DNA of 32,000 nt from Candidatus Thorarchaeota archaeon (GTDB lineage: Archaea; Asgardarchaeota; Thorarchaeia; Thorarchaeales; Thorarchaeaceae), in assembly GCA_003345555.1 (NCBI GenBank), contig PRDJ01000018.1, positions 4,429 to 36,428 on the forward strand, in the 5' to 3' direction. Positions 11,487 through 20,810 of the stretch are shown here, piece after piece (positions within the stretch are counted from its first letter, which is position 1; each line of letters begins with the position of its first letter). Below the pieces are notes generated by a model. The model was given only the letters and a program-made list of their open reading frames with translations, did not search any database and had not been told where the DNA came from. The position numbers and the translations under genes were made by a program.

Positions 11487-11595
11487 TTACATCACCGGCA
11501 AGACCCATGGTAGCTCTTTAATAGTTTCTATCTGTGAAATAATGAAAACATCACCATACGCAACGAGTCGAGGCACCAAGTCTGTGAAGAGAGAA

Positions 11596-11712
11596 TGTGG
11601 CAGCTGATAGGCCTGTCACGGGCTCGCGCACCGCACATGTCCTATCACGATAGTTGGCTTAACTTCGGAGATCGGAACGGGATCCGGTGAACCCAGCTAT
11701 CTGTGGCCGCCA
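11596..11712 (-). rRNA. rrf: 5S rRNA (stand-alone)
   Basis: Minus strand folds as 5S. Helix I UGGCGGC/GCUGCCA, helix II GAUAG..UGG/CCA..CUAUC, conserved GAAGUUAAGCC, UGAUAGG/CCUAUCA helix, GCGA tetraloop. About 117 nt; ends uncertain by a few nt. Confidence 0.9.
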
Positions 11713-11737
11713 TCGAGCCGTTTCTCGTTGGTTCTTG

Positions 11738-11944: not shown

Positions 11945-12084
11945 TGGTGGGGACGCAGGGATTCTCCCGCAGCCGCGCAATGCGACTACGCTTTGAACCC
12001 TGGATCGACGAGTTTCACTTCTTTATGACCCCTTGGTTCATAAGATCTGGAGCCCGTTGCCTTTCCGGTCTGGGCCACGTCCCC
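11945..12084 (-). tRNA. trnW: tRNA-Trp(CCA) with two introns (37/38: 12014-12046; T-loop: 11962-11991), CCA encoded
   Basis: Acceptor GGGGACG/CGUCCCC plus ACCA, anticodon stem ACGGG/CUCGU around CU-CCA-G..A, T stem CAGGG/CCCUG. Removing 33 + 30 nt gives a 77-nt cloverleaf with T-loop UUCAAAU. Confidence 0.9.
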
Positions 12085-12127
12085 GGGTTTGTTCCATCGT
12101 ACGGCTCGGAGATTCGTTATTGATTTA

Positions 12128-12143
12128 ATTCTTGCGCAAGAAT
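12128..12143. promoter_or_regulatory. 16-bp perfect palindrome between divergent tRNA-Trp and rnhB
   Basis: ATTCTTGCGCAAGAAT is self-complementary and overlaps or abuts the AT-rich TTTAAT element. The regulatory role is inferred. Confidence 0.45.
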
Positions 12144-12218
12144 CATCGCTTTCTGTTGGTATATCGTGAATGAAGGATAGCACGACAGTAATAAGTGCCG
12201 CAGCCTCAGGATAGAGTC

Positions 12219-12905
12219 ATGAGAGAAACGGGACCAGGTCTCCGGGGCACCGCAGGTATCGATGAGGCAGGCCGGGGGCCAATGATTGGTCCCCTTGTTG
12301 TCTGTGGTGTGCTCGTACAGCCAGAGTCTATAACTGAACTCCAGCGAATTGGCGTTCGAGATTCAAAGACCCTGACTCCCAAGCGTCGTGTCGAACTTGC
12401 AAAGAAGATTCGAGGTATTGCAGACAGAATCAGTCTCAGACGGATCTCCGCAGCCAGAATTGATGATTTGAGAGCCAAAGGGGTGACGATGAATGAGATC
12501 GAGGTTCGGGCATTTGCATCGATTCTTCGTTCTCTTCGACCAGACAAGGCATTCATCGACGCAGCAGACATCAACGCCCAGAGGTTTGGCGTCCTGATTG
12601 GTGAAAAAAGCGGTCTGGTGTCGCTTGGCTGCAGCATAGTTTCAGAGCACTTTGCAGATTCTACTTATCCAGCTGTCTCTGCGGCATCCATAGTCGCAAA
12701 GGTAGATCGTGACAACCGCATCAGAGAGCTACAGAAGAACTATGGGGCATTCGGCTCTGGTTATCCGTCGGATTCCAGAACTGTTCAGTTTGTTCGTTCC
12801 TTTGTTGTCGACAAGACGCCACTACCTGCAATAGTGCGAAAAAGCTGGAAGTCCGTCGAGAGAATCCTGAGGGAGAGCAAAGGCGAGCAGATGCGGCTAG
12901 GCTAG
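12219..12905 (+). CDS. rnhB: Ribonuclease HII
   Basis: GIDEAGRGPMIGPLVV, GVRDSKTL, FIDAAD, VSAASIVAKV, GSGYPSD. ATG at 12219 (track start 12195). Confidence 0.95.
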   Translation: MRETGPGLRGTAGIDEAGRGPMIGPLVVCGVLVQPESITELQRIGVRDSKTLTPKRRVELAKKIRGIADRISLRRISAARIDDLRAKGVTMNEIEVRAFASILRSLRPDKAFIDAADINAQRFGVLIGEKSGLVSLGCSIVSEHFADSTYPAVSAASIVAKVDRDNRIRELQKNYGAFGSGYPSDSRTVQFVRSFVVDKTPLPAIVRKSWKSVERILRESKGEQMRLG

Positions 12906-12912
12906 GACTAGT

Positions 12913-13875
12913 CTATATTCCTGACCTTTCCTCGATAATCCTCTTTAGTTCACTTGGCTTATCAATCTCGTCGAGTTCTAGCTGCCTGATAACAGGGAGG
13001 TCGGAGACCTGCTCCTCCGCCTTTCCTTCTTCGACTACTATTATCGCGCTCGATTCCGCAACTTTGGAAACGCTCTTCAGTATCTCCACGCGTTTGTGCA
13101 AGTTCAAGCTCTTGAGAGAGCCAATACTGGTCAATAGCGGCGGTCCTTCTTCTTTTGCAGCCACATGGAAAGGCGCCCTGTCAGTCCAGAGCACTTTCAT
13201 TCCGAGCCTCTCAAAGAACTCATTCACACGTTTCTCAAGACCCGGGATATCCCTTGGAAGTCTTGACCGATCAAGATGCTTGCGTCCAACCGGCTTCCTG
13301 AGTATGTCTATTGGGATGATGAGGTCGGTCTCAAGCACTTCCTCTAGCCTTGCGGCTACTTCCGAACTAACATCCATCTCGTCCTTTTCGTAGGCAAGAA
13401 TCGCTCTTGTAGAAACCTCCACGCACTCCGCAAGCTGTTCCTTTGTCATTCTGCGTGAATTGCGCGCTTCTCTTAGTCTGACACCATCGATGGCAACAAA
13501 CCTTCCTCCTCTCTGAATGAACTCTCGGGGAGCTTGTCCGTCGGTCGTCACGCTATGAAAGCTTGGAGGCGTCACAGTGAACACGCCATATCTTTTGTAG
13601 GCCGTCCCGTCTTCCAGAACGCCCCTGCGCGCTCTCTCGCCCACTACTAAGGCAGTGGCATTGAAGAACAGCGCTACCTGTTGAAGAGCAACGGCGTCGT
13701 CTTTCGTCAGGGCATCGATGTTTGAAAGGACCTTTACAAGGATGAGTTGCTCTCCTTTACGTGCCACCAAATCGAAGCAGCTGGGTCTCACGTCACACTG
13801 TGATGAGAACTCAAACCCAGCCTCCTCTAGGTTCGCCATGACCTCACGCATCAGCTGGTTTCGAGTGACAGTCAT
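12913..13875 (-). CDS. Archaeal Cro/C1-type HTH transcriptional regulator with nuclease-like flanking domains
   Basis: FDLVARKG..ILVKVLSNID N-terminal domain and central HTH LREARNSRRMTKEQLAECVEVSTRAILAYE. ATG at 13875 (track start 13908). Confidence 0.8.
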   Translation of the reverse strand: MTVTRNQLMREVMANLEEAGFEFSSQCDVRPSCFDLVARKGEQLILVKVLSNIDALTKDDAVALQQVALFFNATALVVGERARRGVLEDGTAYKRYGVFTVTPPSFHSVTTDGQAPREFIQRGGRFVAIDGVRLREARNSRRMTKEQLAECVEVSTRAILAYEKDEMDVSSEVAARLEEVLETDLIIPIDILRKPVGRKHLDRSRLPRDIPGLEKRVNEFFERLGMKVLWTDRAPFHVAAKEEGPPLLTSIGSLKSLNLHKRVEILKSVSKVAESSAIIVVEEGKAEEQVSDLPVIRQLELDEIDKPSELKRIIEERSGI

Positions 13876-13957
13876 CGTCAGTGCCTTAGGTAAACTTGCT
13901 GCGAGCATATTTCAGGATTGCTAAATATGATACTTCAAGCAGTGAAGGACCGTGGTC

Positions 13958-14404
13958 TCACTCGGTGTCAGGAGCCAGTGCGAATCCGATGCATGTTGTC
14001 GAAGGCATCTTGCGCCGAAGCAATTGCACTTCTGGCCGGGCCAATGTATCGATAGGCTTCCAAGTCTTGATGGTCGTCCATGGTAGGTCGACATGTCCTA
14101 CGACCATCCTTCGTATCAGGAAAGACTCGACTCTTCCTCCAGCTATTGTGAATATACCCGGTCCTAGGTCAAGTCTTCTGAGAATAACTATTGGAAGCCT
14201 TAGTTCGCTTTGGTACTCGGCTGGGACTTCCTTTGAAAGCATTTCAATCTCCTCCTTTCGAAAGGAGGAGCTCTCCCCATTACGTGTGACAAAGGACGGC
14301 GAATGGCTTACAATGAGTTCAGAGAGTTTGATGGTTGAGCTTGGCAAATGGTTGTTAGCCTCGTCTATCTCTCGCTGGATTGTTCTCTCAAGCAGGCCCG
14401 TCAC
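13958..14404 (-). CDS. DUF61 family protein
   Basis: Size and motifs (NNHLP, LRLPIVILRR, RPEVQLLRRKMPSTT) resemble this archaeal family. Overlaps the fibrillarin stop by 4 nt. Confidence 0.65.
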   Translation of the reverse strand: MTGLLERTIQREIDEANNHLPSSTIKLSELIVSHSPSFVTRNGESSSFRKEEIEMLSKEVPAEYQSELRLPIVILRRLDLGPGIFTIAGGRVESFLIRRMVVGHVDLPWTTIKTWKPIDTLARPEVQLLRRKMPSTTCIGFALAPDTE

Positions 14405-15099
14405 TTTATGTCCTCCCTAACACGGCACACAGCAAATACATGGTCTCTATCAAAGGGCTCAAGGTCGATTTTCTCGATGACCTCAAGTCCGAGTCCGTCG
14501 AGCTTGGAGATTTCCCTGCTATAGATTTGGTTCACATCCGAAGTCGAATCTATACTGCGCGCTTTGATTGCTATCATTGCCCAAGCACCGTATGAGCAGA
14601 AGGTCGAAACATTGTCGTGTAAGATTCTGGCCTGATCCGGCTGTGCAATATCCTGGTATGTCACATCAATCTGGCTCGAGACAATTGGAGCATATCTAGC
14701 CGGATGTCTAGCATCGTCTATGATTGGCACAATATTGCTCCGGGAGGCGGCGAGACGAATCAATCCTCTTGCTATCGTAGGCGAGAACTCGACAGCATAG
14801 ACAACACCTTGGGGCCCCACAATATCAGACACATGACTGACTGTCGTACCTGAGGACGCTCCCAGATAGAGCACCTTAGAGCCGGGCTGAATCGGCATTT
14901 CGTTGAGACCGTTCTGCATGGCAGCTGCCAGTTTCGATCTATTCAGAGACCAGACCCTGAAATGGCCCTCTTCAGTCATGACGATCCTTTCACCGTATAC
15001 ACTCTGGCCCGGGACCAGACTGCGCGTGGCAAGGAGCGTTCGGCCATCCTCGGTGATAGTAAAGACACCTGGAAATCTGTGAGGTTCTATGCTCACCAA
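14401..15099 (-). CDS. flpA: Fibrillarin-like rRNA/tRNA 2'-O-methyltransferase
   Basis: RSKLAAA, VLYLGASSGTTVSHVSDIV, VEFSP, DIAQPDQA. Confidence 0.97.
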   Translation of the reverse strand: MVSIEPHRFPGVFTITEDGRTLLATRSLVPGQSVYGERIVMTEEGHFRVWSLNRSKLAAAMQNGLNEMPIQPGSKVLYLGASSGTTVSHVSDIVGPQGVVYAVEFSPTIARGLIRLAASRSNIVPIIDDARHPARYAPIVSSQIDVTYQDIAQPDQARILHDNVSTFCSYGAWAMIAIKARSIDSTSDVNQIYSREISKLDGLGLEVIEKIDLEPFDRDHVFAVCRVREDIK

Positions 15100-16352
15100 T
15101 TGCGTCCTCCGCGTCTCTTCTCCTTCTTGTACTGACCCTGCCCGGAAGGACGCGATCTGGGGGGTCTGCTTTTCCTCGTTTCCGGCGGTGGTCTTTCGGG
15201 CGGCTCGGGATTCTGCTTCCGTATTTCTTCGGTTCTCTTTTCGAATGCTTTTCTCAGTTCTTCTCCAACATCCCTGCGGGAATAAGCGTCGATCTTGGCT
15301 GCAATACTCAGCTTTCCTGCGAGTGCCCTGGCAATCTTACCTCTCTGCCAGTATGGGGCAGAGTAAATCTCGGGTACTTGGTATATGATGCCGTGTTTTG
15401 GCGGGTCGGTTCCGGTCTTCAGACTCCGGAACAAGGCTCTTTCTGCACCGTAGACTTGGACTGTACTAGAGGGTCTGGAAGCCAAGTCCTTCATTGAACC
15501 TGCTAGGCTAATCAGGCGGGCCCCTACCATCGGTCCTACAAGTGCGGTTATGTTGGGGGCCAGAGTGCGCATCATAGACCCGACATAGTCTTCAAGCTCT
15601 CTCCTTAGTTCGTAGAGGCCTTGGACCCTCTCAGCCAAGCGGCTGATTATTGCCAGGTCTGCTTCCTCAAAGTCTGCTCCCATATCCTCGTCGAGGTTGC
15701 CAATCACTGACTGAATCAAGGAATCCGATAATCCTGCTGACCTGAGCCGTTCTTCGTCAACTTGGTTGCGTCCCTTGCAGGCTATCACAACACGGATGAA
15801 TTGTTCTTGGTCTTCGACTAGCTTGCTGAGCGAGCTGTGATGCAAGGAATACCATTCTCTCAGCCGCATGGCCGCCACATTGATTGATTTGTCGATTTCA
15901 CCGATAGCATCAATCGCATGCTTGACCAGAAGGTCACGTGCTTCGCTTGCCGCACTTACACTGGATTTCGCAAGAATGAGTCCAACGGCGCGTTTGAATG
16001 CTCCCGCTTTCTCCTCAGACTCAATAGCACCTGAATCCTGAAGATGCTTCTCCATGCCCATTCTAAACCATTTTGCCGTGGGTGATGACTGTTCAACGCG
16101 CACAGGGATTTTGGTCAATGTCGAGACGGCTCGTGCTATTGACGGGCTCTCGACGACAATTTCGTCAGTGTCAGACCTATCCAGTCCTTTCACGGCTTGC
16201 GTGAGACCAGTGGTTGCCTTGCCCTCGTTTGCAGTCGAGACTTCCAAAGCGGAAGCATCCACATCCGGGTAAGTCATGTATTCAGCAATCACATTTGCGT
16301 TCTTGTCGAGCACGAATGTGCCAAAGGCAGTGAGGGCGAAGTAAACTGGCAA
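15093..16352 (-). CDS. nop5: Nop5 (Nop56/58) box C/D RNP protein
   Basis: RLREWYSLH, APNITALVG, STVQVYGAERALF, PPKHGIIY, RGKIARALAGK, and a basic/proline-rich tail. Confidence 0.95.
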   Translation of the reverse strand: MPVYFALTAFGTFVLDKNANVIAEYMTYPDVDASALEVSTANEGKATTGLTQAVKGLDRSDTDEIVVESPSIARAVSTLTKIPVRVEQSSPTAKWFRMGMEKHLQDSGAIESEEKAGAFKRAVGLILAKSSVSAASEARDLLVKHAIDAIGEIDKSINVAAMRLREWYSLHHSSLSKLVEDQEQFIRVVIACKGRNQVDEERLRSAGLSDSLIQSVIGNLDEDMGADFEEADLAIISRLAERVQGLYELRRELEDYVGSMMRTLAPNITALVGPMVGARLISLAGSMKDLASRPSSTVQVYGAERALFRSLKTGTDPPKHGIIYQVPEIYSAPYWQRGKIARALAGKLSIAAKIDAYSRRDVGEELRKAFEKRTEEIRKQNPEPPERPPPETRKSRPPRSRPSGQGQYKKEKRRGGRNW

Positions 16353-16436
16353 ATCACATCATCCGCTTGCCTTGGCGCATCGCATCATCATAAGGTTGAC
16401 TATCAGCCAAAGGTCCTGAAGACACCGCGTGCCATT

Positions 16437-17351
16437 GTGCTTATTACAGCCCCTCAGCTAGTCCCACAAGATGAGATTACATTGAAGATTGAAGGATATT
16501 GGCTGGCATCCGGAATCCTAGGCGTCACGGGTTCTAGCATGCGTCGAGTAATCAATGCTGGAGCGGACGCAGTAGTAACCAAGTCAATCGGTCCGCGTCC
16601 TAGGAAAGGAAACCCCGGCCCAATCTTGACCGCATCTCATGGTGGCCTATTGAACGCAGTTGGACTGACTAACCCGGGCATTGACCAATTCTCGGAAGAG
16701 ATGGAATTGATGAAGAGCTCTGGCATCCCGGTCGTTCTAAGTATTTTCGGATCCACGATTGATGAGCTGGTAGATGTGGCCAGAAAAGGCGTGAGTATGG
16801 CACCCGCTGCCATCGAGCTGAATCTTTCATGCCCTCACGCTGAGATTGGTCAGATATCGCTCGACCCCTGTCTAACTTACGATTTTGTTCACGCAGCAAG
16901 AGAGGTCGCTGATTGCCCCTTGCTAGCAAAAATCACGCCCAACGCATCAGATATCGTCGCAATAGGACAAGCTGCAGAACGTGCCGGGGCAGATGCTGTG
17001 GTCGCCATTAACACAGTGAGAGCGATGAAGATTGACATCTACCAAAGACGGCCTGTCCTTGCCAACAAGGTCGGAGGCCTATCAGGGCCGTCGATATTCC
17101 CCATAGCGGTCCGATGCATATACGACTTGTACAGCGCCCTGTCGATTCCCATCATTGGTGTCGGAGGAGTGTCCTCATGGGAGGACGCGATTGAGATGCA
17201 TATGGCCGGGGCAAGAGCGATTGAGGTGGGAACTGCTGTCCTACAGGGCATCGGCATTTTCAGACAGATTAAGGAAGGGGTGCAAGTCTATCTCAAAGAG
17301 CAAGGGTTCACTGACATTTCTGAAATCGTGGGCATTGCGGGGAGGACATGA
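16437..17351 (+). CDS. pyrD: Dihydroorotate dehydrogenase (family 1B) catalytic subunit
   Basis: LASGILG, LLNAVGLTNPG, ELNLSCPH, INTV, GGLSGP, IIGVGG. GTG at 16437 preferred because track start 16197 overlaps nop5. Confidence 0.92.
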   Translation: MLITAPQLVPQDEITLKIEGYWLASGILGVTGSSMRRVINAGADAVVTKSIGPRPRKGNPGPILTASHGGLLNAVGLTNPGIDQFSEEMELMKSSGIPVVLSIFGSTIDELVDVARKGVSMAPAAIELNLSCPHAEIGQISLDPCLTYDFVHAAREVADCPLLAKITPNASDIVAIGQAAERAGADAVVAINTVRAMKIDIYQRRPVLANKVGGLSGPSIFPIAVRCIYDLYSALSIPIIGVGGVSSWEDAIEMHMAGARAIEVGTAVLQGIGIFRQIKEGVQVYLKEQGFTDISEIVGIAGRT

Positions 17352-18178
17352 GAATGGACATGTCTCAGCTTGTTGGGAATCCGCAATCCGTTCGCGTGAG
17401 CAAGATCATCAGCGATAATGAACGAGTCCGAACACTAGTCTTTCCTATGCGACTGACAGACAAGGAAATCCAACCAGGTCAATTCCTTATGGTCTGGGTT
17501 CCCGGAGTGGATGATATCCCAATGAGCGTCTCCATGTGGAATCCTCCCAACGTTGGAATCACAGTCCTTCCGGTAGGAGAAGCAACCCAGTCGCTCACTG
17601 CAACGGCAGAGCGTCAATGGCTAGGAATCAGAGGTCCGTTTGGGAATCACTTTGATCCTCAGTCAGGAAGGGTGCTTGTTGTTGGCGGTGGAATTGGAAT
17701 TGCACCGCTTAGGTTTCTTGTTTATCGACTTCGTGAAGTGGGTGCAGATATCACTTTCCTGATGGCTGCACGAACCGCGAAAAATCTAGTCTTTGTCAAC
17801 GAATTCAGCAAGCAAGCTGGCAAGAAGATACGCGTGAAGATTGCGACAGATGATGGATCTGCAGGCTTCAAAGGACTCGCAACCGATGCCGCAGAGGATC
17901 TTCTCAGAGGTGCCGATTTTGACATCATGTATACGTGTGGACCTGAGAGGATGATGGCTGGACTCTACAGGATAGCCAGTCAACGGAGGATACAATTCCA
18001 AGCTTCTCTTGAGCGATTCATGAAGTGCGGGTGCGGGATTTGTGGATCATGCGCATTAGACCCAACTGGCGAGCTGGTGTGTCTGGATGGCCCCGTGTTC
18101 ACTGGAGAAAGACTTGCCCAACTCAACGAGTTCGGTAAGTACTGCAGAGATTCCACGGGAGCAAGAAAGGCTCTATAG
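17348..18178 (+). CDS. pyrK: Dihydroorotate dehydrogenase electron-transfer subunit
   Basis: PGQFLMVW, RGPFG, GGGIGIAP, and the [2Fe-2S] motif CGCGICGSC...CLDGPVF. Confidence 0.92.
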   Translation: MRMDMSQLVGNPQSVRVSKIISDNERVRTLVFPMRLTDKEIQPGQFLMVWVPGVDDIPMSVSMWNPPNVGITVLPVGEATQSLTATAERQWLGIRGPFGNHFDPQSGRVLVVGGGIGIAPLRFLVYRLREVGADITFLMAARTAKNLVFVNEFSKQAGKKIRVKIATDDGSAGFKGLATDAAEDLLRGADFDIMYTCGPERMMAGLYRIASQRRIQFQASLERFMKCGCGICGSCALDPTGELVCLDGPVFTGERLAQLNEFGKYCRDSTGARKAL

Positions 18179-18194
18179 CCAATATGCTACTCAA

Positions 18195-18389
18195 TCATGC
18201 CATGCCGCGTCTTCTGGGCGGGTAACTCTGTGCTGTAACACCCACAGTTCGACCGCGAACGAATCGCTTGACGTAGTTGTTCTTATTTCTCACTCGCGGG
18301 ATGGGGGTATGCCGCTCTCGAGCCTGGACCTTTGGAGTCGCCTCTCGGACTTTTCCTGCCTTTGTTAGTGAACCATGTGAACCAGGCAT
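18195..18389 (-). CDS. rps30e: 30S ribosomal protein eS30
   Basis: HGSLTKAGKVREATPKV signature. TTTTTAT TATA-like element at 18437-18443. Confidence 0.95.
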   Translation of the reverse strand: MPGSHGSLTKAGKVREATPKVQARERHTPIPRVRNKNNYVKRFVRGRTVGVTAQSYPPRRRGMA

Positions 18390-18539
18390 TTGCAGCTTCC
18401 TCTATTCAAGTTTGCATCATAATCTTCGGGCTGCTCATAAAAAGCTATCCAATGAGCACGACCTATTTCGCTTCGCCCAAGGTCATGGAAAGAGCGTATC
18501 GCTTAGTATTAATGTCTACACGGGGCTAGACGTGGGACA

Positions 18540-20144
18540 ATGTCTGCCACAGATGAAGACCTCGGTCTCCGAAGAGAGATCATAGAAATACTGCTTAGCT
18601 CAGAAGGCTCTCTCGACAAACAGGCTGTCAATCGCATCAAGAACTCTGTCTGTGCAAAGTACAAGCGAGCTGAGATTCCCTCGAATGCAGACATACTTGA
18701 GGCTGCTCTGCCCGAAGAACTTGAGGTACTTACACATCTGCTGCAAAAGCGTCCTGTGCGGACAGTGTCAGGCGTTGCCGTTGTTGCCGTGATGACCAGC
18801 CCCTGCCGCTGTCCTCATGGGAAATGCGCGTATTGTCCTGGAGGCCCAGAGAATGGTGTGCCCCAAAGCTACACCGGCTTTGAACCGGCCACAATGAGGG
18901 GCTTACAGAATGAATTTGACCCATACAGGCAAGCGGAGAGCAGACTGAACCAACTGAGAGCGACCGGACATTCTGTCAATAAGACAGAGCTAATTGTCAT
19001 GGGTGGAGACTGGTGTTCAAAAGAGCAGAGCTATCGAGAGTGTTTCGTCAAGGGCTGCCTTGATGCGATGAACGGCGGGATTAGTAGTGACTTCGAAACC
19101 GCGAAGGCCCTCAACGAAGTCTCTCAAGTCAGAAACGTCGGCATGACGTTTGAGACACGACCAGACATGATAACTCCTCAAGCTGTGGATGACATGCTGA
19201 GGCTAGGTGCAACACGGGTTGAGATTGGCGTTCAGAGCCTTTCCGACTCAGTACTCAAACTGGTCGAACGTGGACATGATGTTGCGGCTACAGTTCGCGC
19301 CACAAAACTGCTCAGAGACTCTGGACTCAAGGTCTGTTACCATATCATGCCCGGCCTTCCCAATACCACGCCTGAAGATGACTTGGCCGGGTTTGAGCAG
19401 CTGTTCTCCGACTCCCGATTTCGTCCTGACATGCTGAAAATCTACCCTACACTGGTCATCAAAGGTACGAAGCTTCATGATTGGTGGGTGCGTGGCGACT
19501 ATATTCCCTACGAAACAGAATCGACAGTGGACTTGTTGGCCCGGGCCATCAGCAAGATGCCTGAGTATGTTCGGATTCAGCGTATGCAGAGAGACATACC
19601 CCTTCACAAGATTGAAGCGGGCCTGACCAAGGGCAACCTGCGGGAACTCGTACACGAGAGGATGGGGGCTCTGGGTCTCAGGGATCGTACGATAAGATAC
19701 AGGGAAATCGGTCATTACGAGATGAGGACGGGGCAGAAGGTCAGTATCAATCATCTACAATTCGTCTGCCGCGACTATGAAGCCTCAGATGGAACTGAAA
19801 CGTTTTTGTCATTCGAAGAGCCTGCCTCTGACGTAATTTGCAGCTTCCTTAGACTTCGCAAGCCAAGCAAAGATGCGCACCGACCTGAGCTTGCGGGAGG
19901 TCGAGCTGCGATTATCCGTGAGCTGCGGGTTTATGGCCCCGTTGTTGATATTGGAAAGAGGAAACCTGGGGCTTGGCAGCATTTAGGCCTGGGAGAGGAG
20001 CTTGTTTCTGCAGCCGAGAGAATAGCCAGAAAGGATTACCACGCAGAACAGCTTCTGGTCAACAGTGGACTTGGCGTCAAGCAATACTATAGAGACCTTG
20101 GTTTCAGAGACACAGGTCCATACTTGGTCAAGGCTCTGCGTTGA
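18540..20144 (+). CDS. elp3: Elp3 tRNA U34 acetyltransferase (radical SAM + GNAT)
   Basis: CPHGKCAYCPGG, PQSYTG, TFETRPD, RVEIGVQS, LKIYPTLV, RELRVYG, WQHLGLG. Confidence 0.97.
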   Translation: MSATDEDLGLRREIIEILLSSEGSLDKQAVNRIKNSVCAKYKRAEIPSNADILEAALPEELEVLTHLLQKRPVRTVSGVAVVAVMTSPCRCPHGKCAYCPGGPENGVPQSYTGFEPATMRGLQNEFDPYRQAESRLNQLRATGHSVNKTELIVMGGDWCSKEQSYRECFVKGCLDAMNGGISSDFETAKALNEVSQVRNVGMTFETRPDMITPQAVDDMLRLGATRVEIGVQSLSDSVLKLVERGHDVAATVRATKLLRDSGLKVCYHIMPGLPNTTPEDDLAGFEQLFSDSRFRPDMLKIYPTLVIKGTKLHDWWVRGDYIPYETESTVDLLARAISKMPEYVRIQRMQRDIPLHKIEAGLTKGNLRELVHERMGALGLRDRTIRYREIGHYEMRTGQKVSINHLQFVCRDYEASDGTETFLSFEEPASDVICSFLRLRKPSKDAHRPELAGGRAAIIRELRVYGPVVDIGKRKPGAWQHLGLGEELVSAAERIARKDYHAEQLLVNSGLGVKQYYRDLGFRDTGPYLVKALR

Positions 20145-20170
20145 GTCCGTGAACGTCCAAGGAGGAAGTA

Positions 20171-20288
20171 TGGCGCCGAGGAGGAGATTGATTCGGCCAT
20201 GACGGAGTGTCAGGACCTTTGAACTCCTGAGTGCAGAGCACACCGGTTTTCAAGACCGGCGCCTTAATCCGGGCTTGGCTACCTCGGC
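20171..20288 (-). tRNA. trnS: tRNA-Ser(UGA) with a 30-nt T-loop intron (20189-20218), CCA encoded
   Basis: GCCGAGG/CCUCGGC plus GCCA, CCGGU-CU-UGA-AA-ACCGG, long variable arm, AGGAG/CUCCU T stem. Removing 30 nt restores UUCAAAU and gives 88 nt. Confidence 0.92.
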
Positions 20289-20378
20289 CCACCTGCAGGT
20301 TTCTTCCTGTAGGACGCCCCCCGTTGGAAACTGCTTTTAAGCTTCTTGGACTGCCCGATAGGGAAGGAGCGATTCCGG

Positions 20379-20810
20379 TTGAAGCATGGCTTCAGATACC
20401 ATGGACATACATCTGATGTCACTATAGAATGCTGGGCTCCCACTCTCGAGAAGGCATTCGAGGAGGCCGCACTGGCAACCCTTGAGGTAATGGTCGACAC
20501 TTCTCATGTGAGAGCCCTCGAGTCAGTGGAGGTCAGCGTCAAAGGAGTCGATTTGAAAGAGCTTCTTCTATCTTGGATTGGGCGGCTCATCGCTCTTGTG
20601 GACATCAACCAGCAGTTCTATTCGAGATTCGAGGTGAAAGGAATCTCGGAAGCCTCTGATGGATTCTTGCTCAATGGCAATGCGTGGGGAGAGACAATAG
20701 ATTTCACAAGGCACAAGCCACGAACCGGGGTCAAAGCCATGACCTACGCTGACATGAGAATCGAGCAGTCAAGGGTAAAGACGGCGCTCTGGTTCACACT
20801 CGATTTGTAG
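20379..20810 (+). CDS. Archease (RtcB tRNA-ligase cofactor)
   Basis: FRYHGHTSDV, AFEEAALA, VKAMTY. TTG at 20379 follows a GGAAGGAG SD-like sequence (track start 20346). Confidence 0.9.
   Translation: MKHGFRYHGHTSDVTIECWAPTLEKAFEEAALATLEVMVDTSHVRALESVEVSVKGVDLKELLLSWIGRLIALVDINQQFYSRFEVKGISEASDGFLLNGNAWGETIDFTRHKPRTGVKAMTYADMRIEQSRVKTALWFTLDL

Follow-up and report, generated by a model that had tools for sequence, protein, structure and literature searches.

Two transfer RNA (tRNA) genes of a Candidatus Thorarchaeota archaeon, one for tryptophan and one for serine, are each interrupted within the T-loop by an insert of 30 nucleotides (nt), and the two inserts fold alike. This raises the question of whether they are a chance pair, copies of each other, or separate members of a larger class of introns. 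The stretch analyzed, which we call the window, comprises 32,000 nt of contig PRDJ01000018.1 (positions 4,429 to 36,428; assembly GCA_003345555.1), and positions below are those of the window unless stated otherwise. The assembly measures 2.28 Mb and is 93% complete, with a contamination estimate of 3.4%. In our analysis both inserts are very probably ordinary protein-spliced archaeal introns at non-canonical sites of the T-loop, and belong as distinct members to a lineage-wide class of 29-31 nt, neither being a copy of the other.

The tRNA-Trp(CCA) gene (11945-12084, minus strand) has an encoded CCA and contains two introns. The T-loop intron (11962-11991, minus strand; 30 nt) lies at 59/60 and combines a stem of 9 base pairs (bp) and a 5-nt loop with a relaxed bulge-helix-bulge (BHB) motif. 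The canonical intron at 37/38 (12014-12046, minus strand; 33 nt) appears as an insert in the Rfam alignment, is reported by ARAGORN as i(37,33), and is kept in the orthologues of the family. The tRNA-Ser(UGA) gene (20171-20288, minus strand), also with an encoded CCA, carries its T-loop intron at 58/59 (20189-20218, minus strand; 30 nt), with a 5-nt loop and a strict BHB. Run on the window, ARAGORN missed both genes and called only an intron-free tRNA-Thr; the Rfam tRNA model (RF00005) matched tRNA-Trp at 11948-12084 on the minus strand (137 nt, with inserts of 37 and 31 positions) and tRNA-Ser weakly. Cutting out 11962-11991 and 20189-20218 restores the cloverleaves: the T-loop of both tRNAs then reads as the canonical UUCAAAU, and ARAGORN calls Trp-CCA and Ser-UGA. 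Both genes are found unchanged in DNA contigs from two independent wetland studies. BLAST against the genome gave a single match for tRNA-Trp and a single match for tRNA-Ser(UGA), and because each gene is single-copy, both must be functional. Reading the minus strand bears out the first-pass annotation, which had placed inserts of 30 nt inside the AAA of UUCAAAU in both genes. That annotation had also given both inserts a 9-bp stem and a 5-nt loop. The Trp insert does form such a 9+5+9 hairpin, with nine pairs including two G·U, whereas the Ser insert adopts the same form with its 5-nt loop but with eight pairs and one C·U mismatch.

We scored the BHB motif in every possible register by its central helix of 4 bp, its bulges of 3 nt and the helices that flank them. 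The Ser insert fits 58/59 only, where G53-U54-U55-C56 is paired with GAAU of the intron and the bulges are flanked by the inner hairpin and by a T stem shifted by one register; the earlier description of this GUUC:GAAU pairing as a full BHB is correct. The 59/60 register was rejected for Ser, as zero central pairs form. The best register for Trp is 59/60, with U54-U55-C56 paired and A57 opposite G, i.e., three of four central pairs and a relaxed motif; the 58/59 register is weaker. The orthologues of the same genus have a perfect partner strand, UGAA, and a strict motif. The Trp and Ser introns thus differ in site by splice motif. In the T-loop introns of the family at 58/59 or 59/60, the 4-bp central helix is perfect in 31 of 36 cases, and base 57 and its intron partner vary together.

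These motifs suggest how the introns might be removed. In the pre-tRNA, invariant bases of the T arm (G53-U54-U55-C56 for introns at 58/59, U54-U55-C56-R57 for those at 59/60) and four intron bases close to its 3' end form the central helix of the BHB, flanked on one side by the intron's own 9-bp hairpin and on the other by the T stem. A two-subunit EndA would then cut in the two 3-nt bulges, and RtcB together with archease would presumably join the exons. The genome encodes two paralogues of the EndA catalytic domain, at C57:106409-106663 and C63:16756-17016, which would fit alpha and beta subunits, and RtcB (E = 2.8e-178). A gene for archease, the cofactor of the tRNA-splicing ligase RtcB, is located in the window itself (20346-20810, plus strand; Pfam PF01951, E = 2.6e-34). 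All tRNAs share the bases from which the central helix is built, so that such an intron fits any T-loop; this would account for the T-loop being a hot spot.

The architecture shared by the two inserts is not due to chance: T-loop introns of this genome and of related ones follow it as a rule. We searched the assembly with our own scanner, which looks for a T stem, for the T-loop consensus that appears once an insert of 8-150 nt is taken out, and for an acceptor stem; a second pass also demanded an encoded CCA, and all Rfam candidates were parsed by hand. Deleting BHB candidates and rerunning ARAGORN yielded many ambiguous or false solutions, and this served only to guide parsing by eye. At least nine T-arm introns are present in the genome, and eight of the nine are 29-31 nt long. 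Four are located at 59/60 (Trp and Gln-CUG, 30 nt each; Lys-UUU, 29 nt; Val-CAC, 31 nt), one at 58/59 (Ser-UGA, 30 nt), three at 56/57 (Arg-GCG, Tyr and Ala-GGC, 30 nt each) and one at 53/54 (Gly-CCC, 23 nt). The non-canonical introns elsewhere in these tRNAs are more variable (26 to about 48 nt), and the canonical introns of the genome measure 31-36 nt, plus one of 63 nt. Introns were found in about 30 of the 41 tRNA genes recovered.

The relatives show the same length class. To the Trp and Ser introns of the family we added those parsed from orthologues of the Arg, Tyr, Gln, Lys and Val tRNAs, all of them 29-31 nt. Altogether, the 40 T-loop introns parsed come from eight tRNA types and comprise twenty of 30 nt, seventeen of 29 nt and three of 31 nt; the split between stem and loop varies although the length does not. 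The first-pass annotation had called for such a survey, reasoning that T-loop introns of widely varying size and structure would make the match coincidental; the survey instead returned eight introns of 29-31 nt in this genome and 40 of 40 in the family. In tRNA-Tyr, unrelated T-loop introns occur at 56/57, 58/59 or 59/60 in different genera. The Tyr 56/57 intron of this genome is missing from a second genome of the same genus (G025), and because of this absence it looks like a recent gain.

We parsed the Ser intron in 16 genomes of seven genera, where it is always 29-30 nt long and always located at 58/59, and BLAST coverage suggests its presence in three further genera; it is lacking in the searched genomes of five genera and in single genomes of two others. 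In the alignment of the 16 sequences, 91.9% of cells are paired under the structure named above, changes on both sides occurred at eight of the nine hairpin pairs, and all four pairs of the central helix are kept in 16 of 16 sequences. None of 500 shuffles reached these values, and sliding the partner strand abolishes the covariation signal. RNAalifold recovers the hairpin independently. A strict pattern of the Ser T arm plus intron retrieved ten records among 185,579 species, and the named ones are all metagenome-assembled genomes (MAGs) of Candidatus Thorarchaeota or Promethearchaeota. The Ser intron, found in several genera, is much older than the Trp intron and is maintained by selection on pairing. 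The earlier suggestion of a lineage-specific family under structural constraint is supported by the 29-31 nt length in all 40 introns, by the Ser covariation, and by the restriction of the Ser pattern to Thorarchaeota, Promethearchaeota or unnamed archaeal MAGs.

For the Trp intron, a BLAST search with its gene over 60 genomes of the family recovered a T-loop intron in four of four genomes of the window's genus (30, 31, 30 and 30 nt), two of which share the loop of this genome while two differ in sequence. Outside the genus it was detected in one genome each of two other genera (29 nt), and it was not found in the remaining genera searched. The Trp intron is mainly limited to the window's own genus and is fast-evolving. 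We also observed that two tRNA-Trp genes of the same genus (L015 and L017, in genomes G010 and G034) have, beside the canonical and T-loop introns, a third one of about 30 nt that lies in the anticodon stem/loop region, and that in four genomes of another genus (g4) tRNA-Trp has an intron of about 30 nt in the D-loop instead.

Several observations weigh against reading the two inserts as spliced members of one size class. Thermodynamic folds by themselves favor the BHB conformer in neither tRNA. The minimum-energy fold of the Trp T arm prefers an alternative UUC:GAA pairing, with an internal loop instead of staggered bulges. For Ser, both the thermodynamic and the consensus folds (the latter from RNAalifold) favor the normal T stem plus hairpin, and the BHB requires the T stem to move by one register, leaving just 2-3 bp for the outer helix. 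Parts of the stretch are present in two metatranscriptome runs from wetlands, with contigs that cover neither tRNA and say nothing for or against splicing. The census depends on our own scanner, and T-arm introns of other sizes may be missed. In the 93%-complete assembly it left about five to seven expected tRNAs unaccounted for; searches of the assembly for Ala-CGC, Ser-GCU, two Met, Glu-UUC and Cys returned nothing tRNA-like. The failure of the standard tRNA finders on both genes could in addition be taken to mean that the inserts are not introns at all, but mark pseudogenes, reflect assembly artefacts, or form a hairpin retained in the mature tRNA. We consider this hardly credible, given that the two genes are the only ones for their anticodons, that independent metagenome contigs agree with the assembly, and that the exons are conserved across genera while the splice motif covaries.

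That the inserts are introns of one length class does not decide between origins, as uniform length could reflect shared descent or shared constraint. Under descent, different tRNA genes would have received copies of one ancestral cassette of about 30 nt, which kept its length while its sequence drifted with compensatory changes. We compared the hairpin cores with shuffles that preserve each hairpin's pairs and loop composition; the Ser introns entered the comparison between tRNA types as 15 distinct sequences. The eight cores of this genome have a mean identity of 0.375 (0.336 in shuffles; p about 0.01), and this signal stems from the Arg, Tyr and Ala introns at 56/57, whose cores are 0.57-0.61 identical, loop included. 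For the 40 introns of the family, the best identities between tRNA types average 0.579 (0.505 in shuffles; p about 0.001), with a maximum of 0.68 for a Ser/Lys pair, followed by 0.65 for the Ser intron of this genome (G000) and the Trp intron of another (G011), which have identical loops. The retention of 29-31 nt under differing stem/loop splits and the seemingly recent gain of the Tyr 56/57 intron also fit descent. However, the Trp and Ser cores are only 43% identical, no better than structure-preserving shuffles, which agrees with the earlier remark that their primary sequences differ and leads us to reject direct homology of the two. No pair from different tRNA types reaches 70%: the best values (57-61% in the genome, 68% in the family) fall below the roughly 70-80% or more that would mark, across the tRNA types of a single genome, a transposed family as understood by Fujishima 2010. 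A BLAST search of the genome with all nine T-arm introns, meant to reveal free, second or donor copies, returned each intron itself plus chance matches of 11-16 nt and nothing else. Furthermore, a 2026 census of Asgard archaea recorded no general copying at ≥80% identity (bioRxiv 10.64898/2026.10.13.758758, section 2.5), and the shuffles ignore position-specific preferences, for example at the loop-closing pair, so that convergence could yield the same signal. The similarity between tRNA types fits either old copying or convergent position-specific preferences. Of the first-pass proposal that the introns spread by transposition, the excess of identity between tRNA types stands and lends it slight weight, whereas the unrelated Trp and Ser sequences, the ceiling of 68% and the lack of second copies do not agree with it. 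Descent from one cassette may hold, but we rate it as somewhat short of probable.

The alternative is that the introns arose independently, the shared size and the 9+5+9 hairpin being convergent and imposed by the limits of tolerance that the endonuclease and pre-tRNA folding set at the T-loop. The invariant T-loop bases dictate the central helix, the Ser hairpin kept its form through many compensatory changes, and the same tRNA has unrelated introns of 29-30 nt at different T-loop sites across genera, as in tRNA-Tyr. On the other hand, the BHB rule by itself leaves the length of the inner hairpin free, this genome has introns of 23 nt (Gly-CCC, at 53/54) to about 48 nt at other positions, and the median length of introns elsewhere in Asgard archaea is 22-23 nt (bioRxiv 10.64898/2026.10.13.758758). 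We hold convergence, too, as a tentative explanation that falls short of an even chance. A third view, also anticipated by the first-pass annotation, is that the introns are kept for an extra role, either to break integrase attachment sites in the tRNA's 3' half or as stable excised circular RNAs. The former is a published hypothesis for archaeal tRNA introns, and the attachment sites of SSV extend from the anticodon loop to the T arm (reviewed in PMC4090602); moreover, conservation of the Ser intron in length and loop goes further than the BHB requires. However, the neighbors of both tRNAs are housekeeping genes, no integrase was found near either among the genes of the window, and introns this short could not accommodate a known guide RNA. 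We regard such a role as very unlikely.

The T-loop introns resemble systems described before. Non-canonical BHB introns in tRNAs, and a model for their transposition, were reported for Thermoproteales (Sugahara 2008; Fujishima 2010; reviewed by Yoshihisa 2014, PMC4090602). As there, we find short hairpin introns at non-canonical sites including the T-loop, with several per gene possible and a BHB at the exon-intron borders. The Thermoproteales host has a broad-specificity EndA of two subunits, and the same type, (alpha-beta)2 with an L1 loop permitting broad specificity, is reported for Asgard archaea (Kaneta 2018, PMC5829648). In contrast to Thermoproteales, the host here is a mesophilic wetland Asgard archaeon, the similarity between tRNA types does not exceed 68% (families there reach 80-90%), and the T-loop introns are nearly fixed at 29-31 nt. 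[quoted passage not shown] Our findings agree with these two studies in that most tRNA genes of the same phylum are interrupted and the strongest canonical motifs are those of T-arm inserts. The studies differ in centering on Atabeyarchaeia and Jordiarchaeia, with the shorter median length; we found in them no description of a uniform class of about 30 nt or of a Ser 58/59 intron spanning several genera, and the string "Thorarchae" is absent from the main text of the preprint. The idea of the intron as a shield against integration into tRNA genes goes back to Randau and Soll 2008 (a hypothesis, as reviewed in PMC4090602) and is the same as that of the first-pass annotation, a T-loop intron interrupting the 3'-half sequence that integrases use. 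The tRNA-Trp intron of Haloferax volcanii is a box C/D guide (reviewed in PMC4090602) and is likewise an intron of tRNA-Trp, with a function of its own; however, it is long and located at the canonical site, whereas the 30-nt T-loop hairpins described here leave no room for box C/D elements.

Some further observations concern the surroundings of the two genes and individual tRNAs. A 5S ribosomal RNA gene (11595-11714, minus strand; Rfam, 60 bits) shares its strand with tRNA-Trp and is located about 230 nt downstream of it. The archease gene is divergent from the intron-bearing tRNA-Ser gene, about 58 nt from the 5' end of the latter. Further genes of the window code for RNase HII, an RNA methyltransferase, fibrillarin, Nop5 and Elp3; the last three, with fibrillarin and Nop5 belonging to box C/D methylation and Elp3 to tRNA wobble modification, are located between the tRNA genes, at 14401-16352 (minus strand) and 18540-20144 (plus strand), in a stretch rich in RNA-processing genes. 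Inside the Elp3 gene (about 18730-19450) the wetland DNA contigs break, diverge or skip 190 bases, which suggests strain variation or a variable insert; the rest is covered by single long contigs. Elsewhere in the genome, the tRNA-Gly(CCC) gene (G000:C30:12529-12625, minus strand), which ARAGORN misreads as having a long variable arm, holds the sole T-arm intron outside 29-31 nt. The tRNA-Asn(GUU) gene (G000:C21:20106-20174, plus strand) is truncated by a contig end immediately behind the anticodon arm; what comes after this arm is unlike a T arm and likely represents another intron. Of two tRNA-Leu(CAA) genes (G000:C40:21321-21405 and G000:C45:3009-3126), one is intron-free and one has a canonical intron of 33 nt; the pair could be a true duplicate or a contamination.

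Non-canonical BHB introns, the heavy intron load of Asgard archaea and the transposition model are already published, and the finding does not change what is known of how such introns are removed. What we add is the uniform class of 29-31 nt in eight tRNA types, a covarying Ser intron shared by several genera, and a weak signal of similarity between tRNA types. One consequence is that essential single-copy tRNA genes of Thorarchaeota escape standard tRNA finders. It is also conceivable, though we think it unlikely, that Thorarchaeota possess a portable T-loop cassette of about 30 nt, made up of the 9+5+9 hairpin and a 3' tail, GRRY or YGRA, whose pairing partner is the universal GUUCR of any T-loop, and that this cassette has spread among at least eight tRNA types with its length kept. 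If this were the case, the cassette would settle in any tRNA without adapting to that tRNA, and the copying of introns in Asgard archaea, of which the 2026 census found no sign, would have its first positive trace. The T-loop class could be a test bed for how such introns arrive, a question that the census left open.

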